Below are positions 11,163 to 24,000 of a stretch of DNA of 24,000 nucleotides, piece after piece; positions within the stretch are counted from its first letter, which is position 1; every line of letters starts with the position of its first letter. The notes below the pieces were generated by a model. It saw nothing but the letters and a program-made list of their open reading frames with translations, did no database searches and was not told where the DNA came from. The stretch covers positions 1 through 24,000 of the forward strand of contig JAZTZZ010000002.1 of NCBI GenBank assembly GCA_045637765.1, written 5' to 3'. The stretch comes from Anaerovoracaceae bacterium. Its GTDB lineage: Bacteria > Bacillota > Clostridia > Peptostreptococcales > Anaerovoracaceae. The translations under genes and the position numbers were made by a program.

Positions 11163-12005
11163 TTAAATGATCACAATATCTGTAATTCCGTTCTTTCTCG
11201 CAATCTCTGCCAGTTCCTCCAGCTCTTCACGGGAAGGACTGCACATCTCACTGCGATATGGTTCACGGACACCAAAAGGACGGTAAGCACTGATCCGGTA
11301 ACGGATTGGCTTTTCTCCCTGCAGCGGTGCCAGAAGCTTTGTAATCCGGTCCACAGTTTCACAGTTGTCCAGATAACCTGGAACAACGACGGTGCGAATT
11401 TCTTCAAGCTTTCCGGCTTTTGCCAGTTTAACAGCATTTTCAATAACAGGACTGCTGCTCATTCCTGTCAGTTTCATATGTTCGGCCTCATTCCAGGCTT
11501 TCACATCCAGCATAACTCCATCACAGACAGCCATAAGTTCTTCGTCTGCAGTATAGTCATAGCTGCCGTTGCTGTCCATCAGTGCGGTCTTTCTTTTTTC
11601 CTTTACAAGACGGAACAGTTCCACCAGAAAATCTCTCTGAAGAGAACATTCTCCTCCGGAAACAGTGATTCCCCGGATAAACGGAATATCTTTTTTCAAA
11701 ATATCCATGATTTCCTGTGCAGAATACTCTTTTGTTTTCGGTGTGGACATATTCCGGCAGGCACTCAGACATGCATCGCACTGACAGCATGCATCTTCAT
11801 TCCATACTACTTTTCCATCTGCCATAGACAGAGCTCCTGCAGGACATGCACTGATGCATGCACCGCAGTGGCCGCAAAGATTGATGGTCTCAGGATTGTG
11901 GCAGTATCCACAGGTATAATTACATCCCTGCAGAAAAATTGCCGCCCGGTTTCCCGGTCCATCCACTACACTGCTGTGGATGATTTTATTTACAACAGCC
12001 TTCAT
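11163..12005 (-). CDS. yjjW: glycyl-radical enzyme activating protein, YjjW-like (radical SAM)
   Basis: 280 aa. It has GPGNRAAIFLQGCNYTCGYCHNPE (CxxxCxxC radical-SAM cluster) followed by two ferredoxin-type motifs, CGHCGACISACP and CCQCDACLSAC. It starts 2 nt after the GRE stop. Confidence 0.85.
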   Translation of the reverse strand: MKAVVNKIIHSSVVDGPGNRAAIFLQGCNYTCGYCHNPETINLCGHCGACISACPAGALSMADGKVVWNEDACCQCDACLSACRNMSTPKTKEYSAQEIMDILKKDIPFIRGITVSGGECSLQRDFLVELFRLVKEKRKTALMDSNGSYDYTADEELMAVCDGVMLDVKAWNEAEHMKLTGMSSSPVIENAVKLAKAGKLEEIRTVVVPGYLDNCETVDRITKLLAPLQGEKPIRYRISAYRPFGVREPYRSEMCSPSREELEELAEIARKNGITDIVII

Positions 12006-12007
12006 GG

Positions 12008-13528
12008 TTACTCCAGAGAACGAACCTTACGTTCCAGAATCTTACTGTTCTTTACTTCACCCAGACCCCACATAGCATTTGCCTGAGGTACTGCCTTACC
12101 TGCATCCAGCTTTTCAATATCAGACTTCTTCACCAGATAACCGGTGATACGAATGACATCTGCATCATCACCATATGTAGAGAAGTAACGCATACCCATA
12201 TCAAATCCACCCTTGATTATATCCAGCAGAGCTTCAGAATTGCGTTTTGCAGTTTCATCAAATGGGAAGATATCACCAACACCGGACTTGAAGTACGGAT
12301 GGAACTGGCTGGCATGAATCAGATGTTCATGGAGCGGCAGTTCGCTTCCAATCGCAATACGAACACCGGGGCTGATGGTGCAGTCTTCGGAAATGCCTAC
12401 CTGTGCATGGAGGGAGAAGTGATGGTCAGTTACTTCACAGTAACGGCTTTCGTAGCTTTCCACACATTCAGTCATCTTGTCCAGGATGCGCTTGGCCAGT
12501 GCGTCAGCCTCTTCGCTGTAACCGTAAGTACCGGTCTTGCCATCCTTCACCATCAGGGTGTTTACACACTCATTCATACCTACCATACCGAACATACCGG
12601 TAAAGCGGTCCAGATGCAGGAATCCTTCTGTTACCAGGAAGTTGGACTTGAAGAAATGAGTTTCTTCTACCAGGAAAGTAATCTTCTTTTCAATATATCC
12701 ACACAGTTCAGCCACTGCTTCAGGCAGCAGAGTCTCAATCAGGTGTTCACTGTTGTAAGCACGGTCTGCCATGTGACTTAATACCACACGGGACAGAGTA
12801 AACGCACCGCCGCCAACCGGCAGAGCATTGTAGCAGCTTGCGATGCCATAAGGTACATCGTACAGCTGATTGTATTCTTTATGATTTGCAAAGCTTGGCT
12901 TCGCACATGCCAGTGCACATTCCACGCTGGATACTGCAAAATCATCCGGAGTAATATCAGGATCATACTTCAGGGTAATCGCAGGCATTGCATTATCCTT
13001 GAATTCCTTCTGCACTTCCAGGATGATTCTGCCTGCACGGGTTGCTTCAGGTCCCAGATTCATGTGGCAGTAAGAGTCAGGAATGGTTCTGTCAAGGAAG
13101 AACATGAAGTGACGGATCAGCTTCTTAGCTTCTTCTTCATCTTCAATAAATGGTTCCAGCATCTTGTCCACATTGCCCAGGTATACAGGATAATGTGTTA
13201 CAGACGGAACATGACGGTAGATAACTAACAGTGCAGTGATTGCTTCCCACAGGTTTGTAACAGGCTCCAGACGCAGGAATTTACATCCTTCACGCAGCAT
13301 CTTTTCATAGTCCGGACAAATATAGCGCGGACAGTAAGTCGCGTTGCCTTCTGTCATAGTACAGAGAACACCGGCTTCCACCAGTTCTCTGAACTTCGGA
13401 GTCGTTTCAAAAAATTCAACATGATTCATCGGGATGGATGACAGACAAGTCATAGCCTGCTCGTGAGTCAGTGCACAATTATTGATAACAGACATTACGT
13501 CATTTTTCAGATTTCCAATAGTCAGCAT
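12008..13528 (-). CDS. yjjI: YjjI-family glycyl-radical enzyme (function unknown)
   Basis: 506 aa. The C-terminal glycyl-radical fingerprint is DADVIRITGYLVKK (Gly463, codon complement of 12140-12142). The length, the overall sequence and the adjacent YjjW-like activase match my memory of the short YjjI GRE family. RBS is AAGGAGAG. Confidence 0.85.
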   Translation of the reverse strand: MLTIGNLKNDVMSVINNCALTHEQAMTCLSSIPMNHVEFFETTPKFRELVEAGVLCTMTEGNATYCPRYICPDYEKMLREGCKFLRLEPVTNLWEAITALLVIYRHVPSVTHYPVYLGNVDKMLEPFIEDEEEAKKLIRHFMFFLDRTIPDSYCHMNLGPEATRAGRIILEVQKEFKDNAMPAITLKYDPDITPDDFAVSSVECALACAKPSFANHKEYNQLYDVPYGIASCYNALPVGGGAFTLSRVVLSHMADRAYNSEHLIETLLPEAVAELCGYIEKKITFLVEETHFFKSNFLVTEGFLHLDRFTGMFGMVGMNECVNTLMVKDGKTGTYGYSEEADALAKRILDKMTECVESYESRYCEVTDHHFSLHAQVGISEDCTISPGVRIAIGSELPLHEHLIHASQFHPYFKSGVGDIFPFDETAKRNSEALLDIIKGGFDMGMRYFSTYGDDADVIRITGYLVKKSDIEKLDAGKAVPQANAMWGLGEVKNSKILERKVRSLE

Positions 13529-14542: not shown

Positions 14543-14571
14543 ATTTTACAAGAACAAACATAAAAAGTCAA
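14543..14571 (-). promoter_or_regulatory. putative SigA-type promoter of the rbsK-yjjI-yjjW-rih-ABC operon
   Basis: The minus strand reads TTGACT (complement of 14566-14571), a 17-nt spacer, then TAAAAT (complement of 14543-14548), about 72 nt upstream of the rbsK ATG. It lies in the only AT-rich gap (14471-14596) of the long minus-strand gene run. Confidence 0.55.
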
Positions 14572-14596: not shown

Positions 14597-16015
14597 TTAC
14601 TCAATTTCCCATACGGTTAAAGGAATAAATATCACTTTTATAACGCCTCCACAGATCATTCCGGGATCATCAGAAGTTGTTACATTCAAATCGTATTGTT
14701 CCAGTCTGTATCCATTCATGTTTCTTGCACGTTCGATTGCCATATATTCAGCCTGTCCGCCGCCGATACTGCCAAGAATCCGCTCGTGGCCTACCAGCAT
14801 CATGCTTCCTGCCCCTCTCGGTGCGGACCCGTGCTTTTCCGTGATAATGCACAGTACTCCCGAATCTTTCGCAGTCAAAAGCTCCATGTCAGCAGATGCC
14901 GCATGGCTTACATTTTTAACCTGAATAATCTGTGCCAGAATACTGATAGCAATCTCTGCAGGTGTCACGGCACCGATGGAAAGTCCAATCGGCGCAAAGA
15001 TGGAATCAATCTGCTCTTTCTTAAAGCCATCTTCTTCAAGCATCTGTCTTGTCTTCGCTACCTTCGTCCTGCTGCCGATCATTCCCAGATACCGGTAATC
15101 TGACAGCAGAATGGTGTGTACACACTGATAATCCGCATTATGGTTCGGTGTAACCACTACATAATAAGCATCCGGTTCCAGATACTGTGCCAGATTATCA
15201 AAGGAATCGCAGATTCGTTCCGCAGCAGATGGAAATCGTTCTTCTGTTACCAGATCCTCACGGTCATCGATGACTTTCACAGAAAAGTCCAGATTGGATG
15301 CAAATGCTGCCACCTCTCTGGCCACATGGCCTCCCCCACAGATAATCAGTTTCGGCTGCGGACAGAACCATTCTTCTCTCAGGAAAGAGACATCCTGCTC
15401 CTGGGTCAGAATTGAGGCAACTGCTCTCTGGTACAGGGAACCGACATGAGTCAGATGCAGTCTCACCGGCACTCCAGGATACTGCAAACGAAGCGGAGTA
15501 AGGTAACCCTCAGTCAGAAGTTTCTGCACATGAACCGGCGTCATAATGGTGTCATCCTCAATGCCCAGACATTCCTTTACCAGTTCCAGACGGTGACAGA
15601 CCTCTCCCGCAGGTTTGCCCAAGCCATGGAGTCCGCATACCACGATAATTTCATCAACATTTTCCGGAATCACCGGCTCATTGTCGGCAGGATATTTCAG
15701 CGGCAGACGTCTGGATCCATCCGCCTCTACCAGGACTGCATCTGCATAGCGGCAGACCTCTTCATACACATCATTTGGCAATGCCGTCATCTTTCTGTCC
15801 GGATCTGCATCCGCACGGTTTCCCGCCATAGCATACCCCTGGTCCTTCAACTGACGAATAATTGTATCTGCATCCGCATCCAGCAGAGTATCCTCTTCTA
15901 TAAACATATGGGTAGTAGTGGTAATCAGAACTGATTTTCCCTCGCTGCGATACTGCTGTGCCATGGTATTAATTAATGTGGTTTTTCCTCCGGAACCAAC
16001 TACTGCTGTAATCAT
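14597..16015 (-). CDS. fusion protein: YqeC-like selenium-cofactor biosynthesis domain + XdhC-family domains (Rossmann part preceding the XdhC/CoxI part)
   Basis: 472 aa. Residues 1-~212 are YqeC-like (MITAVVGSGGKTTLINTMA...VLITTTTHMF...LVEADGSR). Residues ~221-367 form the XdhC C-terminal Rossmann-like domain (LIICGGGHVAREVAAFASNLDFSVKVIDDRE...IGLSIGAVTPAEIAISILAQII). Residues ~377-466 form the XdhC/CoxI N-type domain (HGSAPRGAGSMMLVGHERILGSIGGGQAE...ICGGVIKVIFIP). An ATGA overlap joins it to the upstream gene. Confidence 0.75.
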   Translation of the reverse strand: MITAVVGSGGKTTLINTMAQQYRSEGKSVLITTTTHMFIEEDTLLDADADTIIRQLKDQGYAMAGNRADADPDRKMTALPNDVYEEVCRYADAVLVEADGSRRLPLKYPADNEPVIPENVDEIIVVCGLHGLGKPAGEVCHRLELVKECLGIEDDTIMTPVHVQKLLTEGYLTPLRLQYPGVPVRLHLTHVGSLYQRAVASILTQEQDVSFLREEWFCPQPKLIICGGGHVAREVAAFASNLDFSVKVIDDREDLVTEERFPSAAERICDSFDNLAQYLEPDAYYVVVTPNHNADYQCVHTILLSDYRYLGMIGSRTKVAKTRQMLEEDGFKKEQIDSIFAPIGLSIGAVTPAEIAISILAQIIQVKNVSHAASADMELLTAKDSGVLCIITEKHGSAPRGAGSMMLVGHERILGSIGGGQAEYMAIERARNMNGYRLEQYDLNVTTSDDPGMICGGVIKVIFIPLTVWEIE

Positions 16016-16827
16016 AAGCCCAGCCGTCCTTTCTCATGGAGAATTGCTTCAATTACACCTCCGGCAATACATCTTGCCTTATCTGAAATGGTGAAGCAGT
16101 TTTCATATTCATCCAGACGCGGATCAATGTCTGCGATTTTAAATCCCCTGGTTACCGGATACCCATCACGGATCAGTCCGCGGAGAAGACCGTCTAAAGA
16201 AGCCTCTACAGGCACCGGACCCTCTGCAGTTTCAACCAGCGCAATAACCTCACCTTTCGTTACGGTATCCGTAATCTTCTTTACATTCCGAAGAATGCCT
16301 TCAGCAGGACAGTGAATCACACGTTCCTTCCCGAAACCGCCAATGATCCCAGGAACGCCCGTATTGGGCGCAGCAGAGCCGGTCCACAATACTTTGCCAA
16401 GGTTATGGCCCCGCTTCGTTTCGACAACGCAGGTCACATCCCTGCCCGCCTCAAAGCCAGGCCCCAGAGCAACCGTAACAGGTGCCATATCCTTATGAGT
16501 TCCCAGGTTCTTTTTCGCCAGAATCCCATCGACCACTGCCAGCGGTTTCATGGCTTCGATTGTATTGCCGGAAGGATCCACCAGCACCGTCAGCTTTCCT
16601 TCTGCAAGGAAAGCCTTGGCTTCTTCCAGAGAAGCTGCCAGCCAGCAGGTCATGTCCTCCACTGTGTGCTGCCCTGAATATACCGCTTCCGAAAATGCCA
16701 CATTTCTGCGGATAGCAGAAGGACTTTCCGTTTCCAGAATCAGTACCGGAAATCCACACTTTTTCAGTTTATAAATGGTTCCGGTGGCAAGATCGCCGCC
16801 GCCGCGTACAATAATCAGATTATTCAT
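16012..16827 (-). CDS. yqeB: selenium-dependent molybdenum hydroxylase system protein, YqeB / EF2563 family
   Basis: 271 aa. The N-terminus IIVRGGGDLATGTIYKLKKCGFPVLILETESPSAIRRNVAFSEAVY matches my memory of the EF2563/YqeB-C-terminal family. The context (selD, yedF, yqeC) supports the call. Confidence 0.75.
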   Translation of the reverse strand: MNNLIIVRGGGDLATGTIYKLKKCGFPVLILETESPSAIRRNVAFSEAVYSGQHTVEDMTCWLAASLEEAKAFLAEGKLTVLVDPSGNTIEAMKPLAVVDGILAKKNLGTHKDMAPVTVALGPGFEAGRDVTCVVETKRGHNLGKVLWTGSAAPNTGVPGIIGGFGKERVIHCPAEGILRNVKKITDTVTKGEVIALVETAEGPVPVEASLDGLLRGLIRDGYPVTRGFKIADIDPRLDEYENCFTISDKARCIAGGVIEAILHEKGRLGL

Positions 16828-16839
16828 CCCATTCTCCAG

Positions 16840-17883
16840 TTACTCTAAAATAATGTCTTTTTCTTCCTTTTCGGTCACATATCCGATGATTGCAGCCTGA
16901 GGAATCTGTTCCTTCAGCTCCGCAGCACACTGCTCTGCATACTTCTGCGGCAATGCAAACAGCAAACCGCCGCTGGTCTGCGGGTCATACAAGATATCCT
17001 CCATGGCCAGTGTGATCTGCCCGCGTTTTTCTACACCGTTCTGAGCATACTCTCGGTTCCGGTAAGCGCCGGCAGGAACCAGTCCCATGGACGCAAGTTC
17101 CAGCGCTTCCTTATGATACGGCACCTGATCCACCTGAATGTGCAGGCTGCATCCGCTTCCCTGGGCCATTTCATAACTGTGACCCATGAGTCCGAAACCA
17201 GTCACATCAGTACAGCTGTTTACCGGATATTTTACCATAATGTCTCTGGCGGCCCGGTTCAGTGTAGCCATCTGCTGATAGATGCGTTCCATCACCTCTT
17301 CACAGGTCATGTCCGCCTTGGCACCGGTGGTCAGAATCCCCACACCAAGAGGTTTTGTCAGAATCAGAACATCGCCTGGCTTGGCATTGGAATTGGTCAG
17401 AACCTTATCCGGGTGTACAAATCCGGACACTGCCAGGCCGTAAATAGGTTCCGCCCCCTTGATCGTATGGCCCCCTGTTATAATCGCCCCAGCATCATAT
17501 GCGGCATCGTAGCCGCCCCGCAGAATCTCACGAATGACAGAGTCCGCCATTCCCTCCACTGCGCAAAGTATATTCAGTGCCAGCTTCGGCTCCCCACCCA
17601 TGGCATACACATCGCTGAGAGCATTTGTTGCAGCAATTTTTCCGTACAGGTACGGTTCATCTACAATCGGCGGGAAGAAATCGGTGGTCTGAATCAGGGC
17701 CGTGTTTTCATCAATTACATATACGCTTGCATCATCACTCTTTTCATATCCCACAATCAGGTTGGGGTCGGAATGAGTACGGAAGCCCTCCAGCATACGT
17801 GCCAGTGTGCCGGCCCCCATTTTCGCACCGCATCCGGCACAGTTTGCCAGTTTGGTCAGTTTTACATCATTTTCCTTCGTCAT
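16840..17883 (-). CDS. selD: selenide, water dikinase (selenophosphate synthetase), Cys-type
   Basis: 347 aa. The N-terminal LTKLANCAGCGAKMG aligns with the E. coli SelD GAGCGCK loop. The catalytic position is a TGC Cys codon (complement of 17830-17832), not TGA. AIR-synthase-like motifs (DDASV, TTDFF) are present. Confidence 0.92.
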   Translation of the reverse strand: MTKENDVKLTKLANCAGCGAKMGAGTLARMLEGFRTHSDPNLIVGYEKSDDASVYVIDENTALIQTTDFFPPIVDEPYLYGKIAATNALSDVYAMGGEPKLALNILCAVEGMADSVIREILRGGYDAAYDAGAIITGGHTIKGAEPIYGLAVSGFVHPDKVLTNSNAKPGDVLILTKPLGVGILTTGAKADMTCEEVMERIYQQMATLNRAARDIMVKYPVNSCTDVTGFGLMGHSYEMAQGSGCSLHIQVDQVPYHKEALELASMGLVPAGAYRNREYAQNGVEKRGQITLAMEDILYDPQTSGGLLFALPQKYAEQCAAELKEQIPQAAIIGYVTEKEEKDIILE

Positions 17884-18515
17884 TACGGTCTCACCACACT
17901 GCGGGCAGTTTCCATCCGCTCTACGATATCATACATATTAGTTACGCCGCCAACCGCCAGCTTTTCTTTCAGGCCATAGAAGTCCAGGCAGGTGCCGCAG
18001 GTAAGAATGGTAACACCTTCGGATTCCAGCAGCTTCAGGTCTTCCAGTGTGTCTGCACCTTCACAGGTCAGGTACGCACCGGTGTTATAGCAGAGAATGG
18101 TTTTCGGCAGGTAGTCCTGTCTGGTCAGAGCGAAAACAAAGGCTTTCATCAGAGAAGTTCCCAGCTTTTCATCACCGGTGCCCATCACATTGGCAGGCAG
18201 TACCACCAGCATGCCCTTCTTTCTGCGGTCTGCTTCGCAGGAAATTTCTTCTTCTGCGGTTTCATCTTCCGCTTCTGTCACAGGTGCGGATGCAGCAATA
18301 TTCATAATCACTGCAAAATCTTTCTCCCCGTCCTTCTCAGCGGATGCAGTGAATCCCTTATGCTCTGCAAATCTGCAGAGATTCTGCACTGCGATTTCGT
18401 TGTCCACCAGAACAGTCAGCACATCGCCTTCCTTCAGTTCTTCTGCTGCCTTCTTTGCATTTACTACAGGCAGAGGACATGCCATACCTCTGCAGTCAAT
18501 CTTCTTTTCCATCAT
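17883..18515 (-). CDS. yedF: sulfurtransferase-like selenium metabolism protein YedF (TusA/SirA domain + DsrE-like domain)
   Basis: 210 aa. The N-terminus is IDCRGMACPLPVVNAKKA (CPxP TusA motif). The C-terminus is GTGDEKLGTSLMKAF...LTCGTCLDFYG...GGVTNMYDI. Its stop overlaps the selD start by 1 nt (TAATG). Confidence 0.8.
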   Translation of the reverse strand: MMEKKIDCRGMACPLPVVNAKKAAEELKEGDVLTVLVDNEIAVQNLCRFAEHKGFTASAEKDGEKDFAVIMNIAASAPVTEAEDETAEEEISCEADRRKKGMLVVLPANVMGTGDEKLGTSLMKAFVFALTRQDYLPKTILCYNTGAYLTCEGADTLEDLKLLESEGVTILTCGTCLDFYGLKEKLAVGGVTNMYDIVERMETARSVVRP

Positions 18516-19654
18516 TCTTCCTCCTGTGCCAGTTCCTGCAGGGCAGAAACTGCAATCTTGATTTCTTCCATTGTGTTATAGTGTGAAAAGCTGAAACGGA
18601 CCGCCCCTTGTTTTACTGTCCCCAGGGCCTGGTGCATCAGCGGTGCACAGTGAGCTCCCGGCCTGGTGGCGATTCCGTACTGTGCCGATAGCACATCGCT
18701 GACTTCACCCGAATCGTAATTCCTCACATTGAGTGTCACGATGCCGCATCTGTTTTTCGTTTCAAAATCCCCATACACGGTGATTCCGTCAATCTGACGG
18801 ACCCGGTTATAAAACTCCCACATCAGATTCTGTTCCGTCTCCCGGATAGTATCCAGCCCGGATTCCTGTATATATTTCACTGCCGCAGCCAGTCCGGCGA
18901 TGCCGTGTCCGTTTAAGGTACCGGCTTCCAGTGCCGTCGGCATCTGGGGCGGGTGTTCCTTCAGATACGTCTGCACACCGCTTCCTCCTGAGAGCAGCGG
19001 ACGTATACGAAGACCTTCTCTCACATAGATACCGCCTGTTCCCTGTGGTCCCAGAAGTCCCTTATGGCCTGTAAAGCAGAGAATATCGATGTTCATCTTC
19101 TGCACATCAATGTCGAATACCCCTGCAGTCTGAGACGCATCGACGATATAGATCAGTCCATGTTTCCTCGCTATTGTACCAATGCGTATCAGGTCCAGCA
19201 GGTTTCCGGTCAGATTGGATCCATGCGTCGTAATCAGAACTTTCGTATTGGGCCGAATGTTTTTTTCAATATCCTCATAGTTTATATTCCCCTGCTGATC
19301 TGCCGGCAGAATCGTCAGCTGAACTCCTGCCTTTTCCATTTCGTACAGGGGCCGCAGAACAGAGTTATGTTCCAGCGCTGTAGTGATCACATGGTCCCCT
19401 GGACTCAGAGTTCCCTTGATGGCGATATTCAGACTTTGAGTGGAATTGGCAGTAAAGGCAATCTGTTCGGGGCTTTCTGCATGAAACAGTTCCGCCAGAG
19501 CAAGTCTTGCATCATAAATCACCCTGGAGGTACTCAGTGCATTGCTGTGTGCTCCCCGTCCCGAGTTGCCCATGGTATATAGCGCGTCTGTTATGGCCTG
19601 AATCACACATTCCGGTTTGCGAAGTGTTGTCGCCGCATTATCGAAATAAATCAT
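18512..19654 (-). CDS. class-V aminotransferase-fold cysteine desulfurase / selenocysteine lyase-like enzyme
   Basis: 380 aa. It begins IYFDNAATT, carries the PLP-Lys context LCFTGHKGLLGPQGTGG, and has GAHCAP near the C-terminus. An ATGA overlap joins it to yedF. Confidence 0.85.
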   Translation of the reverse strand: MIYFDNAATTLRKPECVIQAITDALYTMGNSGRGAHSNALSTSRVIYDARLALAELFHAESPEQIAFTANSTQSLNIAIKGTLSPGDHVITTALEHNSVLRPLYEMEKAGVQLTILPADQQGNINYEDIEKNIRPNTKVLITTHGSNLTGNLLDLIRIGTIARKHGLIYIVDASQTAGVFDIDVQKMNIDILCFTGHKGLLGPQGTGGIYVREGLRIRPLLSGGSGVQTYLKEHPPQMPTALEAGTLNGHGIAGLAAAVKYIQESGLDTIRETEQNLMWEFYNRVRQIDGITVYGDFETKNRCGIVTLNVRNYDSGEVSDVLSAQYGIATRPGAHCAPLMHQALGTVKQGAVRFSFSHYNTMEEIKIAVSALQELAQEEE

Positions 19655-19665
19655 ATTTTTTCACC

Positions 19666-19902
19666 TCACACCATACAGAGGCAGCAGCCCTGATGCTGAA
19701 TGCTGTGGCGCTGCATCAGATCCAGCAGCGCAGCCTGACTTTCCGGCTTTGCACACCAGGCCAGACCACAGTCTGCCGTAATGCTTCCCGGTACCGGAAT
19801 AATTCTTCCTTCTGCCCCTTCTTCCTTACAGGCCTGTTCCATGGCCATTGCGGCCGTAGTCGTATAGAATGTAATTACAAGTTTTTCTGTTCGCTTAATC
19901 AT
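19666..19902 (-). CDS. DUF3343-like small protein (putative Se/S carrier)
   Basis: The track ORF extends to 19944. I prefer the ATG at 19902 (MIKRTEKLVITFYTTTAAMAMEQACKEEG...IPVPGSITADCGLAW), whose length and beta-alpha start are typical of DUF3343. This start overlaps the upstream stop (cTATGATTAA). Confidence 0.7.
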   Translation of the reverse strand: MIKRTEKLVITFYTTTAAMAMEQACKEEGAEGRIIPVPGSITADCGLAWCAKPESQAALLDLMQRHSIQHQGCCLCMV

Positions 19903-20989
19903 AGTAGTGTTCCAATTCTTCCATAGCTTCCCGCGTATCCACATCCATCAGCTCATGAAGATCTTCTACCTGCATCATGGATACTTTTTCTGGATACTTC
20001 TTAAGAATCCAGCTGCCGCCTTTTCCTTCCGGAAGGGTCTTCAGTGCTTCTTTACTCCAGGTTGGGAAGATAACCGGAGATCCCGGAAACTCATCATGGC
20101 AGGTCCGCCAGATTTTATCTTTTTCGTTCACCGCACAGTGAAGCAGCGCCGCCACCGTCTCCCTTCGAAGGAGAGGCTGGTCCGCCGGACAGAACATATA
20201 ACCATCTGCATCCCCCAGAGCCTCCATTCCCAGTCTGACCGTGTCACTGCGGTGCGGCAGATCATGAAAAACAACCTCCACTCCTCTGTCTCTGCACAGC
20301 TTTACCACATCTTCATGTCTTGTCACCACCACACGCCGTCCGAATAAGCCTTCTGTAGCATCCAATACATAAGAAATCATTGGTTTACCCATAAAATTTA
20401 TCATCAACTTATTTCCGCCAAACCGTTTTCCCAGGCCTGATGCCATAATAACGCATCCCACATTTCCAAAAGGTTCGTCCAGATCGATGACGAAGGCATC
20501 TTCTCTGCTGCACAGTAACTGCAGGAAGGCCAGATCCTGCTTTCTTACCACTGCAGCCACCTGCTTTGCTTCCATAAGCTGCAAAATCGCCTCACAGTAG
20601 GCCTCACATTCCGTTTCCAGGTATCCGATTTCATCGATGCTGACCCAGGGACTGTCAGAGTCTGCAGCACGCTGCAGTGCTTCGATGCCAAGGTGAAGGA
20701 ATCCATCCTGCACAACTTTCATACGGTTTTCACATCCCTGGCGCGTTTCGTCGAAGATTCCCGCCTGTGCAGTTTCTCCCGTGACAGAATCCTTTAACCA
20801 TACGGATTTTCCCGGTTCTGCCCAAGTTGTAATTCCGGGAAGAGGCTGATCAAATAAGGCATTCAGCAGTGTGGTCTTTCCGCTTCCCCGGCCGCCTGTC
20901 AGGATCAGGTGACGTTTACCGCTGCTCTGAAAAGAATTCCAGATAGAGCTGGCTGTTGGCCTGTATGCAGGCGTTCCGATATGCTTCAT
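19895..20989 (-). CDS. fusion protein: THEP1-like P-loop NTPase + MocA/MobA-like molybdenum-cofactor nucleotidyltransferase
   Basis: 364 aa. Residues ~25-175 give HLILTGGRGSGKTTLLNAL (Walker A) and WVSIDEIGYLE (Walker B-like, as in the NTPase_1/THEP1 family). Residues ~177-364 give CVIMASGLGKRFGGNKL, CPADQPLL and a C-terminal MDVDTREAMEEL, all typical of MocA/MobA. The start is uncertain: the only ATG (20989) lies 74 nt inside the upstream gene. Confidence 0.75.
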   Translation of the reverse strand: MKHIGTPAYRPTASSIWNSFQSSGKRHLILTGGRGSGKTTLLNALFDQPLPGITTWAEPGKSVWLKDSVTGETAQAGIFDETRQGCENRMKVVQDGFLHLGIEALQRAADSDSPWVSIDEIGYLETECEAYCEAILQLMEAKQVAAVVRKQDLAFLQLLCSREDAFVIDLDEPFGNVGCVIMASGLGKRFGGNKLMINFMGKPMISYVLDATEGLFGRRVVVTRHEDVVKLCRDRGVEVVFHDLPHRSDTVRLGMEALGDADGYMFCPADQPLLRRETVAALLHCAVNEKDKIWRTCHDEFPGSPVIFPTWSKEALKTLPEGKGGSWILKKYPEKVSMMQVEDLHELMDVDTREAMEELEHYYD

Positions 20990-21257
20990 AACGCGTCATC
21001 CATTCCTTTCCCTCTGTTGTCAGCTGGCTTCCTCCTCCATCTTTTCCGCCTGTCATGCGGGAAGTCAGCGGAAATCCCAGAGCAGTTTCCGCATTCTTCA
21101 ATACTTTCAAAGCCTTGGTATAGGCCATGTTCATAGACATGGCAGCTGCACGCAGTGACCCTGTTTCTTCTACCGCACGTAAAAGTCTGAACGGTCCTTC
21201 CCCAAAAAACTTTTCCTCGTTGTCATCGAGAAAAACAATCTTTGTCACGGCCTTCAT
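20916..21257 (-). CDS. ModE N-terminal-domain-like winged-helix regulator (short LysR/ModE-type HTH, no Mop domains)
   Basis: 113 aa. GSLRAAAMSMNMAYTKALKVLKNAETALGFPLTSRMTGGKDGGGSQLTTEGKEWMTRY matches the ModE N-domain pattern (GS...AA..L..SY..AW..I..LN......L......GG..GGG..LT..G). An ATGA overlap joins it to the upstream ATPase gene. Confidence 0.75.
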   Translation of the reverse strand: MKAVTKIVFLDDNEEKFFGEGPFRLLRAVEETGSLRAAAMSMNMAYTKALKVLKNAETALGFPLTSRMTGGKDGGGSQLTTEGKEWMTRYEAYRNACIQANSQLYLEFFSEQR

Positions 21258-22048
21258 TGGTCATCCTCCCTGAGCATGATTAACTGCTCCCCACCATTTC
21301 GCATTCTGCAGCTCTGCAAATTAACGGGACCATATATTTTGCTGAGCAATTGCTCCATTTTATCGAGATTATCTGTCTTTGGCCGGATTATTTCCAATAC
21401 GTTACCATCCGACAGAAGCAGAAGTTTATCACAGTAATTCAGTGCCAGCGCAGGATCATGGAGGGTAACAATGGCCCCCCGTCCACCTTCCTGTACCCAG
21501 CTTCGGATCATCTTCAGCATCTGGTAACGATACCGGAAATCCAGTGCACTTTCCGGTTCATCTAAAAGCAGAAGTCTGCTGTCCGATACCAGCGTACGGG
21601 CCAGAACGCACATCTGCTTCTGTCCCTCACTGAGATTCAGGTAATTGACCTCTTCCATTCCACCAAGCCCTACCTGCTTCAGCATCTGCCGTGAACGTTC
21701 TATCATAGTCCCATCCGGATGCTGCAAAAGCTTCAGCTGAGGATTAAAGCCCATCAGTACCACATCCATTGCTGAAATATCAATGCCGATGCCGCTGCGC
21801 TGCGGAATATAGCTGCATAATCCGGCAAGCCGCCGAGGCGGCAGATTCTCAAGCAGCTCACTCTGCAGTATGCAGGAACCTTCGTGAGGCAGAATTCCGC
21901 AGATGGCTTTCAGCAGTGTAGTTTTTCCGCTGCCGTTTGCCCCCAAAATCCCCAGAACAGAACCTTCCTCCAGATCAAAGGACAGATTATGAACCACCTT
22001 CTTCGTATGATACCCTGCGGTTATATTTTTTGCAGAGAAGAAAGTCAT
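21254..22048 (-). CDS. ABC transporter ATP-binding protein, FecE/FepC/BtuD-type
   Basis: 264 aa. Walker A GANGSGKTT, signature LSEGQKQ and Walker B LLLLDEPES are present. An ATGA overlap joins it to the permease gene. Confidence 0.9.
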   Translation of the reverse strand: MTFFSAKNITAGYHTKKVVHNLSFDLEEGSVLGILGANGSGKTTLLKAICGILPHEGSCILQSELLENLPPRRLAGLCSYIPQRSGIGIDISAMDVVLMGFNPQLKLLQHPDGTMIERSRQMLKQVGLGGMEEVNYLNLSEGQKQMCVLARTLVSDSRLLLLDEPESALDFRYRYQMLKMIRSWVQEGGRGAIVTLHDPALALNYCDKLLLLSDGNVLEIIRPKTDNLDKMEQLLSKIYGPVNLQSCRMRNGGEQLIMLREDDQ

Positions 22049-23055
22049 ACGCCTCTCCTTTCTCTTACAATGAGATACACTAAAAATGGTGCGCCCAGAA
22101 GGCTGGTAAAAATGCTGACCGGAAGTTCCGTCTGGGCCACGCTGCGTGCCAGAATATCAGCACTGCAAAGCAGAATGCCTCCTGCAATTCCGCTGAGCAT
22201 CATAGTACCCAGCCGATTGTTTTTCGTCAGAAGGCGGGCACTGTGAGGTGCCAGAAGTCCCACAAAGCTGATTAAGCCGGACAGGCTGACCACCGATGCC
22301 ACAACCAGAGTCGCCAGAAGCAAAATGATCAGCCGCATCTTTGCCACATCAACACCCAGCATCCGTGCTTCTCCCTCTTCCGCTGACAGCATAATCAGCT
22401 GGCGATGCAGAAGAAAAAGCACCACAAGGCAGATTACACATAAAGCCAGATTCCAGCCGATGGAGTACGCGCTGATTCCGTTGAGACTTCCCATAATCCA
22501 GTACTCGATGGATGCCAGTTCCCGTTCCGGATCTGCAGTGAGCTTCAGACACATGAGAAGGGTCTGAGCCAGAGAATGTACCGCAATTCCGGCTAAAACG
22601 ATAGTGCTGTTTTTTCCGCTTCGATCCAGTGAAGATAAAAGCAATGCAAGGCTTACTGCAGTCAGCGCCCCTGCAAAAGCAGAGATTGTCACCGCCGCTG
22701 CACCGGACAGAAACAGAATGCCTGCTGCAGCACCGGCGCTGGCACCGGAGGATACACCGATAATATCCGGAGCAGCCAATGGGTTGCGAAAGACTGTCTG
22801 ATAGACGAATCCTGATACTCCCAGAGCAAAGCCGCCGAAGACACCAACTACAATACGGCTCAGACGGAGAGTCAGAAATACCCTCCACTGCATTTCATCT
22901 CCTGCCAGAAGCAGCTTAAGGCTCAACGGGTATTTCCCCACAAACAAACTAAAAGCAGCCAGGGCAAGCAAAAGAACCGCCCCGGCTGTGCAATATAATT
23001 TCGTTGTATTAGTTTTCGCTGTATTTAAAACCATAGAATGTTTCATAATATTCAT
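22045..23055 (-). CDS. FecCD/BtuC-family (type II importer) ABC permease
   Basis: 336 aa and polytopic. FecCD-like motifs include RNPLAAPDIIGVSSGA, EEGEARMLGVDV and LPVSIFTSLLGAPFLVYLI. The start is uncertain (ATGs at 23055, 23046 and 23034); all of them overlap the end of the SBP gene. Confidence 0.85.
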   Translation of the reverse strand: MNIMKHSMVLNTAKTNTTKLYCTAGAVLLLALAAFSLFVGKYPLSLKLLLAGDEMQWRVFLTLRLSRIVVGVFGGFALGVSGFVYQTVFRNPLAAPDIIGVSSGASAGAAAGILFLSGAAAVTISAFAGALTAVSLALLLSSLDRSGKNSTIVLAGIAVHSLAQTLLMCLKLTADPERELASIEYWIMGSLNGISAYSIGWNLALCVICLVVLFLLHRQLIMLSAEEGEARMLGVDVAKMRLIILLLATLVVASVVSLSGLISFVGLLAPHSARLLTKNNRLGTMMLSGIAGGILLCSADILARSVAQTELPVSIFTSLLGAPFLVYLIVRERRGV

Positions 23056-24000
23056 CCATAACTGCTGTGCAGTCTTCTTCAGCCATCAGATCCGGATGGA
23101 GCACACTCGCCAGCCATAATGATCCCAGAATGCTTCCTGGAACCGGGCTGTCCCACGCTTCTGCATTTCCCGGAACCTGGAACACCTGCTTCTTTTCTAC
23201 TGCTGCACATCCTGCCAGATTTGGATCAGCCAGAACATCTTCCACTGTGTAAGTTGCATCGGAAGCCAGAATAATGTATTCCGGATTCCAGGTCAGCAGC
23301 TGTTCGTAGTCGATTTCTACCCAGTAAGTGTCGGTCAGTTCTGCTGCCACATTGGTTCCGCCCGCCATGCGGATCATATCAGACTGATACATGGCATCCC
23401 CTGCTGTAGACAGCATGCTGGAGTTGCCTGCCAGATATACAGTTGGTGTTTCCACATCCTTCAGTACTTCTTCCAGCAGTGCTTCCTGATCTCCAATAAA
23501 ACCAATCAGCGTTTCTGCTCTTTCCTGTGTACCGGTTGCCTGTGCAATCAGGTTCACCATTTCTTCCAGCAGTTCTCCGTTTTCAGGATTTACCAGCAAA
23601 ACATCGATACCCAGGCCTTCCAGCTGTTCGGCTGCTGCTTTTAACTTCAGCGGCAGAATTACCAGATCCGGACTCAATGCAGCACAGCCTTCCAGGTCAA
23701 ATTCCTTGGCAGTGCCCACGTTCTTCATGGTAGTCAGCTGCGGTGCACTTACCTTGTACAGGAATCTGTTTTCATTCTTCGCTTCCACACCAACCATCTT
23801 TTCATCCAGGTCCAGTGCAATCAGCAGACTTGTGGAGATATAGTAGCCACTCACAAGCTTTTCCGGCTGTGCTTCGATTGTTACCTCACGGCCTGCCTGG
23901 TCAGTTACCGTAACAGGATAGTTTCCAGTGCTGTCAGCACCGCCGTTTTCTGTACCGGCGCTCTGACCGCATGCTGCCATGGACAGAATCATGACCAGAA
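23009..24000 (-). CDS. periplasmic-binding-protein type 2 (FhuD/BtuF-like) ABC substrate-binding lipoprotein, 5' end beyond the right edge
   Basis: The frame is open to 24000 (..LVMILSMAAC-GQSAG, lipobox MAAC). The ATG at 23992 in the track therefore falls inside the signal peptide. The body (YYISTSLLIALD, LSPDLVIL, NPEYIILAS, AWDSPVPGSILGSLWLA) is typical of chelate-binding SBPs. Confidence 0.8.
   Translation of the reverse strand, partial: LVMILSMAACGQSAGTENGGADSTGNYPVTVTDQAGREVTIEAQPEKLVSGYYISTSLLIALDLDEKMVGVEAKNENRFLYKVSAPQLTTMKNVGTAKEFDLEGCAALSPDLVILPLKLKAAAEQLEGLGIDVLLVNPENGELLEEMVNLIAQATGTQERAETLIGFIGDQEALLEEVLKDVETPTVYLAGNSSMLSTAGDAMYQSDMIRMAGGTNVAAELTDTYWVEIDYEQLLTWNPEYIILASDATYTVEDVLADPNLAGCAAVEKKQVFQVPGNAEAWDSPVPGSILGSLWLASVLHPDLMAEEDCTAVMDEYYETFYGFKYSEN

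Follow-up and report, generated by a model that had tools for sequence, protein, structure and literature searches.

A type II ABC importer divergent from a molybdenum hydroxylase in Clostridia, a candidate for molybdenum cofactor salvage

What does an importer of the chelate class bring into the cell when its genes overlap those of molybdenum cofactor (Moco) tailoring? The question is raised by a 24,000-nt stretch of DNA from an Anaerovoracaceae bacterium (positions 1 to 24,000 of contig JAZTZZ010000002.1, hereafter the window), which makes up the opening 24 kb of a contig of 42.8 kb in a 2.4-Mb genome that is 94% complete (the source genome). At its end five minus-strand genes encode, in order, a substrate-binding lipoprotein, a FecCD permease, an ATPase, a 113-residue ModE-N-like winged-helix protein and a fusion of an NTPase domain with a MocA-like nucleotidyltransferase (Table 1). 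With permease, class III binding protein and ATPase encoded together, the importer is, by sequence, a type II (BtuCD/FecCD-class) ATP-binding cassette (ABC) system. The original prediction, made from the window alone, had tied it to the cofactor pathway of molybdenum hydroxylases and had offered a chelated molybdenum or tungsten species, a selenium compound or a pterin-like molecule as substrate. The tie is borne out by all family members examined, every one of which lies in a molybdenum-cofactor context, and of the three candidates the pterin-like molecule fits best while a selenium compound is unlikely on distribution. We consider the chances about even that the importer carries preformed Moco (molybdenum-bound molybdopterin (Mo-MPT) or a close derivative), a reading in which we infer the ligand, the transport and the regulation alike.

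An eight-gene island of importer and hydroxylase

Fifty-seven loci were fetched from species-representative genomes (Lachnospiraceae, Oscillospiraceae, Acutalibacteraceae, Gemmiger, Faecalibacterium and others), the closest relative among them being an Anaerovoracaceae metagenome-assembled genome (MAG). The five-gene cassette is kept in ∼50 of the 57, and a xanthine dehydrogenase (XDH)-type hydroxylase operon lies divergently upstream in 51 of the 51 loci with enough upstream DNA. The hydroxylase comprises FAD, 2Fe-2S and 765-residue Mo subunits, its nearest NCBIfam model is XdhA (matched under the cut-off), and the Mo subunit is 75–92% identical across loci. The conserved unit is an eight-gene island, with the hydroxylase operon running one way and the importer, ModE-N and NTPase–MocA genes the other. 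Because identity is high across bacterial families, sequence comparison suggests that the island spread laterally, and it is probably mobile. Translational coupling joins the importer genes to the gene of the cofactor-tailoring enzyme but not to those of the hydroxylase. Family members examined, down to 37% identity, all adjoin XDH, MocA, ModE-N, YqeB/SelD or MoaC genes; the siderophore or heme neighbourhoods that would have spoken against a molybdenum role were not seen among them, no context being iron-related. At one locus (L059) the Mo subunit gene is followed by genes for a 471-residue FAD-dependent protein, a purine nucleoside phosphorylase and a phosphoribosyltransferase, neighbours that suggest a purine substrate for the hydroxylase.

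Junction sequences give successive gene overlaps of 47, 4 (ATGA), 4 (ATGA) and 74 nt, exactly as first reported, so that the ATPase gene carries an ATGA overlap on either side. The two long overlaps are real and conserved, because homologues of the permease (28 loci) and of NTPase–MocA (37 loci) align from residue 1. Between the cassette and position 14571 no convincing promoter or terminator was found, and the run continues into the selenium genes. The single unit with the Se/Mo maturation genes that had been proposed stands in the source genome, where the operon runs into selD, yqeB and yqeC, but not in most other loci: selenium genes adjoin the cassette in only 5 of ∼45 loci (L001, L033, L040, L047 and the source genome), YqeB is found in 6 of 42 carrier genomes, and the expected co-occurrence of the importer family with yqeB/selD across genomes does not hold. 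The constant partner is the divergent XDH-type hydroxylase just outside the window, not the maturation genes, which are an add-on particular to the lineage of the source genome. Uptake of a selenium compound for the downstream maturation genes, which the direct run of the importer operon into genes for a Se carrier, SclA, YedF, SelD, YqeB and YqeC in the window might suggest, is scarcely credible given this distribution. Four of the YqeB carriers (G006, G025, G030 and G034, the genomes of L007, L033, L040 and L047) have neither MoaA nor MoaC nor MoeA, and selenium-dependent maturation in them would act on an acquired cofactor.

Hydroxylase hosts without a cofactor pathway

Cofactor genes were counted in 42 carrier genomes, with MoaA and ModA counted above curated cut-offs. 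MoaA, MoaC and MoeA occur in the same five genomes (5/42 each), a TupA-like protein occurs in 3/42, MoaE in 2/42 and ModA in 1/42. In the other 37 genomes no MoaA, MoaC or MoeA was found, nor any ModA or TupA match above curated cut-off (0/37). These 37 carriers can neither build molybdopterin nor insert molybdenum, yet keep the hydroxylase at 75–92% identity, and molybdate is useless to them because they have no molybdopterin synthesis and no metal insertion. Three of the 37 are isolates (Acetatifactor aquisgranensis DSM 110981, Lachnoclostridium sp. An131 and Gemmiger formicilis An812), in each of which the island hydroxylase is the sole MoCoBD enzyme; PF00384 (bis-molybdopterin guanine dinucleotide) enzymes, XdhC and stand-alone molbindins were not found in the three. 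Incompleteness of MAGs was considered as the cause of the missing pathway and rejected, since completeness is 90% or higher in the class-wide sample described below, the carriers include three isolates, and the four markers agree genome by genome.

In the cofactor-less hosts NTPase–MocA is the sole remaining cofactor-handling enzyme, no XdhC having been found in the cofactor-less island carriers checked, and it is present in essentially all cassettes reaching that far. The fusion matches PF03266 (1.1e-10, residues 27–171) and PF12804 (9.7e-31, residues 179–332). Its best-scoring family is TIGR03310 MocA, aligned over model positions 1–186 of 188 with 121.6 bits against a cut-off of 186.45, and NF011056 (MobA/MobB fusion) is also matched. 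The C-terminal half resembles MocA (YgfJ) in being a MobA-like NTP transferase, with MocA the closest, although its score is under the equivalog cut-off. The P-loop NTPase partner recalls the MobB of MobA–MobB fusions, but the N-terminal domain here is NTPase_1 (THEP1-like).

The source genome belongs to the five carriers in which the de novo pathway is complete. Its Moco cluster holds moaC, mogA/moaB, moeB-like, moaA, tupA-like, tupB, tupC, moeA and moaE-like genes, a Moco/Tuco riboswitch precedes the tupA-like gene (Table 1), and the genome encodes one MoCoBD enzyme and no PF00384 enzyme. The possibility that the importer is this genome's sole molybdate importer was considered and set aside: ModA is absent, but the riboswitch-led TupA-like gene stands in the moa/moe cluster.

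An independent sample drawn from the same class (399 genomes, each with a completeness of 90% or more) contains an XDH-family Mo subunit in 77 genomes and MoaC in 85. Nineteen of the 77 XDH-bearing genomes, from 13 genera, are without both MoaC and MoeA, and molybdenum hydroxylases without a cofactor pathway seem common in the class. The binding-protein family (E ≤1e-60) is found in 11 genomes, all of them XDH-bearing (11/11, and 0/322 without XDH), and the ten loci outside the source genome all adjoin XDH, MocA, ModE-N, YqeB/SelD or MoaC genes. The family is present in five of the 19 cofactor-less genomes. For 13 of the other 14 the XDH loci were fetched, and the cassette is absent from all 13. 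Hidden family members elsewhere were sought genome-wide in ten of the 14, and only generic relatives of 25–28% identity were found. Ten of the 13 loci encode a protein here termed TM208 (∼208 residues, about six transmembrane helices, no Pfam or NCBIfam family). Its gene directly adjoins the hydroxylase genes, and most of these loci also encode, nearby, MocA, XdhC or a free-standing version of the NTPase_1 that the island has fused to MocA. TM208 occurs in 15 of the 399 genomes, 14 of which are XDH-bearing, and 11 of these 14 are cofactor-less (without MoaC); TM208 may be a non-orthologous substitute for the ABC importer. Either the importer or TM208 is found in the XDH locus of 15/19 cofactor-less and 9/58 cofactor-proficient genomes, or, by genus, of 10/13 and 6/34, respectively (Fisher's exact test, 8e-7 by genome and 2.7e-4 by genus). 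Two unrelated putative transporters fill one operon niche, with a preference for genomes unable to make the cofactor, which is the pattern of vitamin salvage systems.

An importer in the operon neighbourhood of a catabolic enzyme might also take up the organic substrate of that enzyme (a purine, urate or another N-heterocycle) or some other small molecule, the MocA link being a matter of operon economy. Substrate transporters are frequent in catabolic enzyme operons, the importer and hydroxylase genes of one locus (L076) are co-directional in a single run, and the rest of the window is devoted to purine and nucleoside catabolism. Such an importer is nevertheless improbable, as it leaves the cofactor source of 37 of 42 hosts unexplained and does not predict the enrichment of XDH-linked transporters in cofactor-less genomes (15/19 versus 9/58). 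Translational coupling is to the ModE-N and MocA genes and not to the hydroxylase, the predicted operator is a ModE-type box (see below), and the window already encodes a PnrA-type nucleoside ABC importer. Further, we know of no class III binding protein for purines.

Binding pocket and predicted operator

The binding-protein gene is cut by the end of the window; the complete protein has 339 residues from a start at contig position 24028, carries a lipoprotein signal (MKKIISVLLILVMILSMAAC, the lipobox) and matches PF01497 (3.3e-35, 122 bits). With phmmer it matches PDB entry 4hn9 (1e-108) and MolA (3psa/3psh, 2.6e-26), and its match to BtuF is 4e-9. Structure prediction, which had been suggested as a check, gave an AlphaFold2 model (pLDDT 83.8) with a predicted class III binding-protein fold, and Foldseek with this model retrieved 4hn9 (TM-score 0.83) and MolA (TM-score 0.78 at 27% identity). 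4HN9, a structural-genomics entry from E. eligens, is the closer relative but is uncharacterised, and MolA is the nearest characterised one. The permease matches PF01032 (270 bits, 2.3e-80) and, among PDB structures, FhuB (2e-54), HmuU (2e-39), MolB (HI1471, 1e-37) and BtuC (3e-29), while the nearest NCBIfam models of the ATPase are heme, Fe-dicitrate and corrinoid ATPases, all under cut-off.

Names of the kind 'iron complex transport system substrate-binding protein' in public databases, together with the requirement of the hydroxylase for two 2Fe-2S clusters, might suggest an ordinary iron-chelate, heme or corrinoid importer that is here by chance. The iron names are untested structural-genomics labels, however, and the importer proteins score far under the cut-offs of all the NCBIfam iron, heme and B12 equivalogs. 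The restriction of the family to XDH-bearing genomes (11/11 versus 0/322), always in Mo-cofactor contexts, and a conserved palindrome that is ModE-like rather than Fur-like make such an importer very improbable.

MolBC-A of Haemophilus influenzae (HI1470/HI1471/HI1472) takes up molybdate and tungstate as a type II ABC importer (PMC4031551, PMC4245157), which refutes the premise of the original prediction that molybdenum importers are all of type I and supplies the characterised parallel that it had failed to see. The molybdate-coordinating residues of MolA are K221 and R264, with Y114 and Y301 also in the pocket (bioRxiv 10.64898/2026.10.15.759412). These were mapped to the PDB chain by a constant offset of 21 (4/4 identities match) and compared with 66 family members of 36–100% identity. 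The K221 position is Met in 66/66, the R264 position is Asp in 53/66 and Arg or Lys in 0/66, the Y301 position is Ser in 62/66, and the Y114 position is Leu, Ile or Met in 58/66. In place of the MolA ligands the family has a specific set of invariant aromatic, charged and other residues (Y62, Y63, E82, R88, K108, C115, E149, M213, Q215, W236 and D293).

The 113-residue protein scores 59.4 bits against TIGR00637 ModE_repress (cut-off 98.5) and 35.9 bits, above cut-off, against HTH_1; its best solved relative is PDB entry 2ijl (1.4e-9), with ModE (1b9m) at 1.2e-3. No TOBE/Mop domain was matched in this protein, in agreement with the original reading that Mop domains are missing. A separate Mop or molbindin partner was considered and rejected, the source genome having no TOBE or molbindin gene; TOBE matches in other carriers lie within frames of 370–385 residues that are probably ABC ATPases, and none is a stand-alone molbindin. 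Single-domain ModE-N proteins that pose the same sensing puzzle have been noted in Desulfovibrio (PMC545781), and a ModE gene near selD in E. faecalis was listed by Zhang et al. 2008 (PMC2432076).

The importer and hydroxylase operons diverge from a control region of 147 nt, and the promoter and predicted operator sit just beyond the window end, where the control region had been expected. Aligned control regions display an extended -10 (TGCTATAAT) for the hydroxylase operon and a TTG-type -35 with an extended -10 (TGnTATAAT) for the importer operon. A 24-bp palindrome, CGTTRTA-N10-TAYAACG, starts 2 nt past the importer -10 and is kept in 45 of the 48 loci that cover both the upstream region and the regulator position. 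The ModE-N gene and the palindrome are both present in these 45 loci and both absent in L014 and L020, and L023 is likewise without either; promoter hexamers are retained in all three despite the double loss, which is natural co-variation of regulator and operator. In the source genome the palindrome has a single occurrence, with 0.6 expected from composition. Its layout matches the Escherichia coli ModE consensus ATCGNTATATA-N6-TATATANCGAT (PMC545781), with CG ends at a distance of 20 nt, half-sites that resemble TATA and a centre of 6 nt. The 113-residue protein is therefore predicted, from these sequence features, to bind the palindrome and repress its own operon. The resemblance to ModE and modABC of E. 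coli extends to a probable N-terminal winged-helix fold of ModE type, the 24-bp operator layout and the overlap with the transcription start of a transporter operon; unlike the 262-residue ModE, however, the protein has 113 residues and no Mop/TOBE domain, and the half-sites are TTRTA rather than TATATA. A riboswitch ahead of the importer was also sought, but neither the window nor L059 has one, and the Moco riboswitches of L072 and L073 control other genes.

These observations bear on the proposal of a type II importer resembling MolBC-A, which would take up molybdate or tungstate and supply the oxyanion for cofactor synthesis under ModE-type repression. Both systems combine a class III binding protein, a FecCD-type permease and an ATPase, and both have a link to molybdenum metabolism; of the characterised homologues MolA is the closest, MolB is among the solved relatives of the permease, the regulator and the predicted operator are ModE-type, relatives of the importer in cofactor-proficient genomes adjoin moaC and a Moco riboswitch, and H. 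influenzae too has two molybdate systems (PMC4031551). We nonetheless regard an oxyanion substrate as a serious but unlikely alternative. Neither cationic ligand of MolA is kept in any of the 66 members (Met replaces Lys; Asp or some other non-basic residue replaces Arg), and K221, R264, Y301 and Y114 are all replaced in the family. Most importer hosts, 37 of 42, are without MoaA, MoaC and MoeA, so that molybdate is unusable for cofactor synthesis in them, although molybdopterin synthesis and MoeA are both present in the source genome. The regulator has no Mop domain and the source genome no molbindin, riboswitch-controlled TupABC is already present there, and, unlike MolBC-A, the importer operon includes ModE-N and MocA genes and stands back to back with an XDH-type enzyme.

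Proposed salvage of preformed Moco

We propose that, outside the cell, the lipoprotein binds Mo-MPT, or a compound derived closely from it, that other anaerobes have released, and that the FecCD-type permease and ATPase would then import the cofactor as BtuCD-F imports corrinoids. The MocA domain would add CMP, giving the molybdopterin cytosine dinucleotide (MCD) form needed by XDH-family enzymes, and the fused P-loop NTPase domain may aid handling or insertion. A ModE-N dimer on the 24-bp palindrome over the transcription start would repress its own operon and may also influence the divergent hydroxylase promoter. In the source genome, with de novo Moco synthesis and TupABC, the selenium-maturation genes would have been appended to the operon, and the importer would supplement synthesis, much as BtuCD-F does in bacteria that make corrinoids. 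The gene content of the carriers bears on which form would be imported. Cyclic pyranopterin monophosphate or metal-free MPT would be insufficient because MoaD/E and MoeA are missing, and import of MCD would make MocA superfluous.

Scarce, large cofactors are the typical cargo of type II importers (PMC4245157). Like BtuCD-F, the present system belongs to the type II importers and uses a class III binding protein (BtuF 4e-9, BtuC 3e-29) and, by analogy, would salvage a costly metal cofactor from community members and tailor it inside the cell. It differs from BtuCD-F in that the substrate is unrelated, the cofactor ligand is only proposed, and a ModE-N protein stands here where a cobalamin riboswitch stands there. 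That mature Moco moves between organisms and serves a recipient without synthesis is known from dietary Moco uptake by Caenorhabditis elegans (PMC7849362, PMC9793310), although this is an animal system. Full-text literature searches found no description of a bacterial importer of Moco or molybdopterin; mentions of Moco transfer were confined to dietary uptake by C. elegans and one speculative sentence on type 11 secretion, and the present importer is not mentioned in the papers found on selenium-dependent hydroxylases and gut purine degradation.

Several points weigh against Moco salvage. The ligand is proposed on grounds of distribution, the characterised homologue closest to the binding protein, MolA, has molybdate and tungstate as ligands, and the regulator and predicted operator appear to be of the molybdate-regulon (ModE) type. 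The L072 and L073 relatives (45–48% identity), in cofactor-proficient genomes, adjoin moaC and a Moco riboswitch, which fits an oxyanion importer equally. The MolA ligand residues come from the text of one preprint and were mapped by sequence offset and not by coordinates. Taken without TM208, the binding-protein family is found in 5/19 cofactor-less and 6/58 proficient genomes, a difference that is not significant (p = 0.13); 4/19 cofactor-less XDH genomes carry neither transporter, so another cofactor route must exist. MAGs make up most of the genome set, and relatives within it do not count as independent observations. Moco in free form is chemically labile, and the searchable literature documents no uptake of it by bacteria.

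Moco is currently viewed as too labile for exchange and as made by every organism that uses it, and the one documented passage between organisms leads from dietary bacteria to C. elegans. In the 399-genome sample about a quarter of the XDH-bearing Clostridia are without the whole cofactor pathway, and most of these carry one of two candidate dedicated membrane transporters in the hydroxylase locus. More tentatively than for the ligand itself, we suggest that the importer may be the first recognised bacterial Moco uptake system, with Moco a shared 'vitamin' like B12 and TM208 performing the same job in other lineages. Import of Moco, if true, would define cofactor cross-feeding for gut molybdenum enzymes, provide a handle on how Moco crosses membranes, and bear on the anaerobic breakdown of purines and urate in the microbiota, a process dependent on these hydroxylases. 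Were molybdate the substrate after all, the family would still constitute a second branch of type II oxyanion importers, divergent and with another kind of pocket, and the hydroxylase hosts without a cofactor pathway would continue to call for an explanation.

Table 1. Positions of the importer cassette and associated features (window positions unless a contig or locus is named)
Feature	Position	Strand	Basis or remark
Class III (Peripla_BP_2) substrate-binding lipoprotein	23009 to beyond window end (24000), true start 24028	-	PF01497
FecCD/BtuC-type (type II) ABC permease	22045..23055	-	PF01032
ABC ATPase of importer	21254..22048	-	PF00005
113-residue ModE-N-type winged-helix protein	20916..21257	-	TIGR00637 below cut-off, HTH_1
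NTPase_1 and MocA-like nucleotidyltransferase fusion	19895..20989	-	PF03266, PF12804
Se/S-carrier, SclA-like lyase, YedF, SelD, YqeB, YqeC–XdhC fusion	14597..19944	-	Pfam, NCBIfam matches
YqeC–XdhC fusion, one 472-residue protein	14597-16015	-	PF19842, PF13478, PF02625
-10 TGCTATAAT	contig 24065-24073 (outside window)		promoter element belonging to the unit
24-bp ModE-box-like putative operator CGTTATACTTTAAAAACAACAACG	contig 24039-24062 (outside window)		
Three-subunit XDH-type hydroxylase operon, divergent	contig 24176-27733 (outside window)	+	Pfam, NCBIfam matches
Moco cluster of source genome (L066, L070)	C37:53959-61898		
Moco/Tuco riboswitch before tupA-like gene	C37:56925-57053		RF01055, 68.7 bits
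TM208	L084:10374-11000 (G076:C2:878373-878996)		homologues L083, L085-L089, L091-L093
471-residue FAD-dependent protein after Mo subunit	L059:7742-9157 (contig C2:27742-29157)	+	Pyr_redox_2, FAD-depend_C
YjjI-like glycyl radical enzyme and radical SAM activase	11163-13528	-	661 bits (YjjI-like enzyme)

Elsewhere in the window a YjjI-like glycyl radical enzyme and its radical SAM activase are encoded in the same direction as the Se/Mo maturation genes, and the neighbours of the enzyme are a ribokinase, a nucleoside hydrolase and the PnrA-type nucleoside ABC importer.

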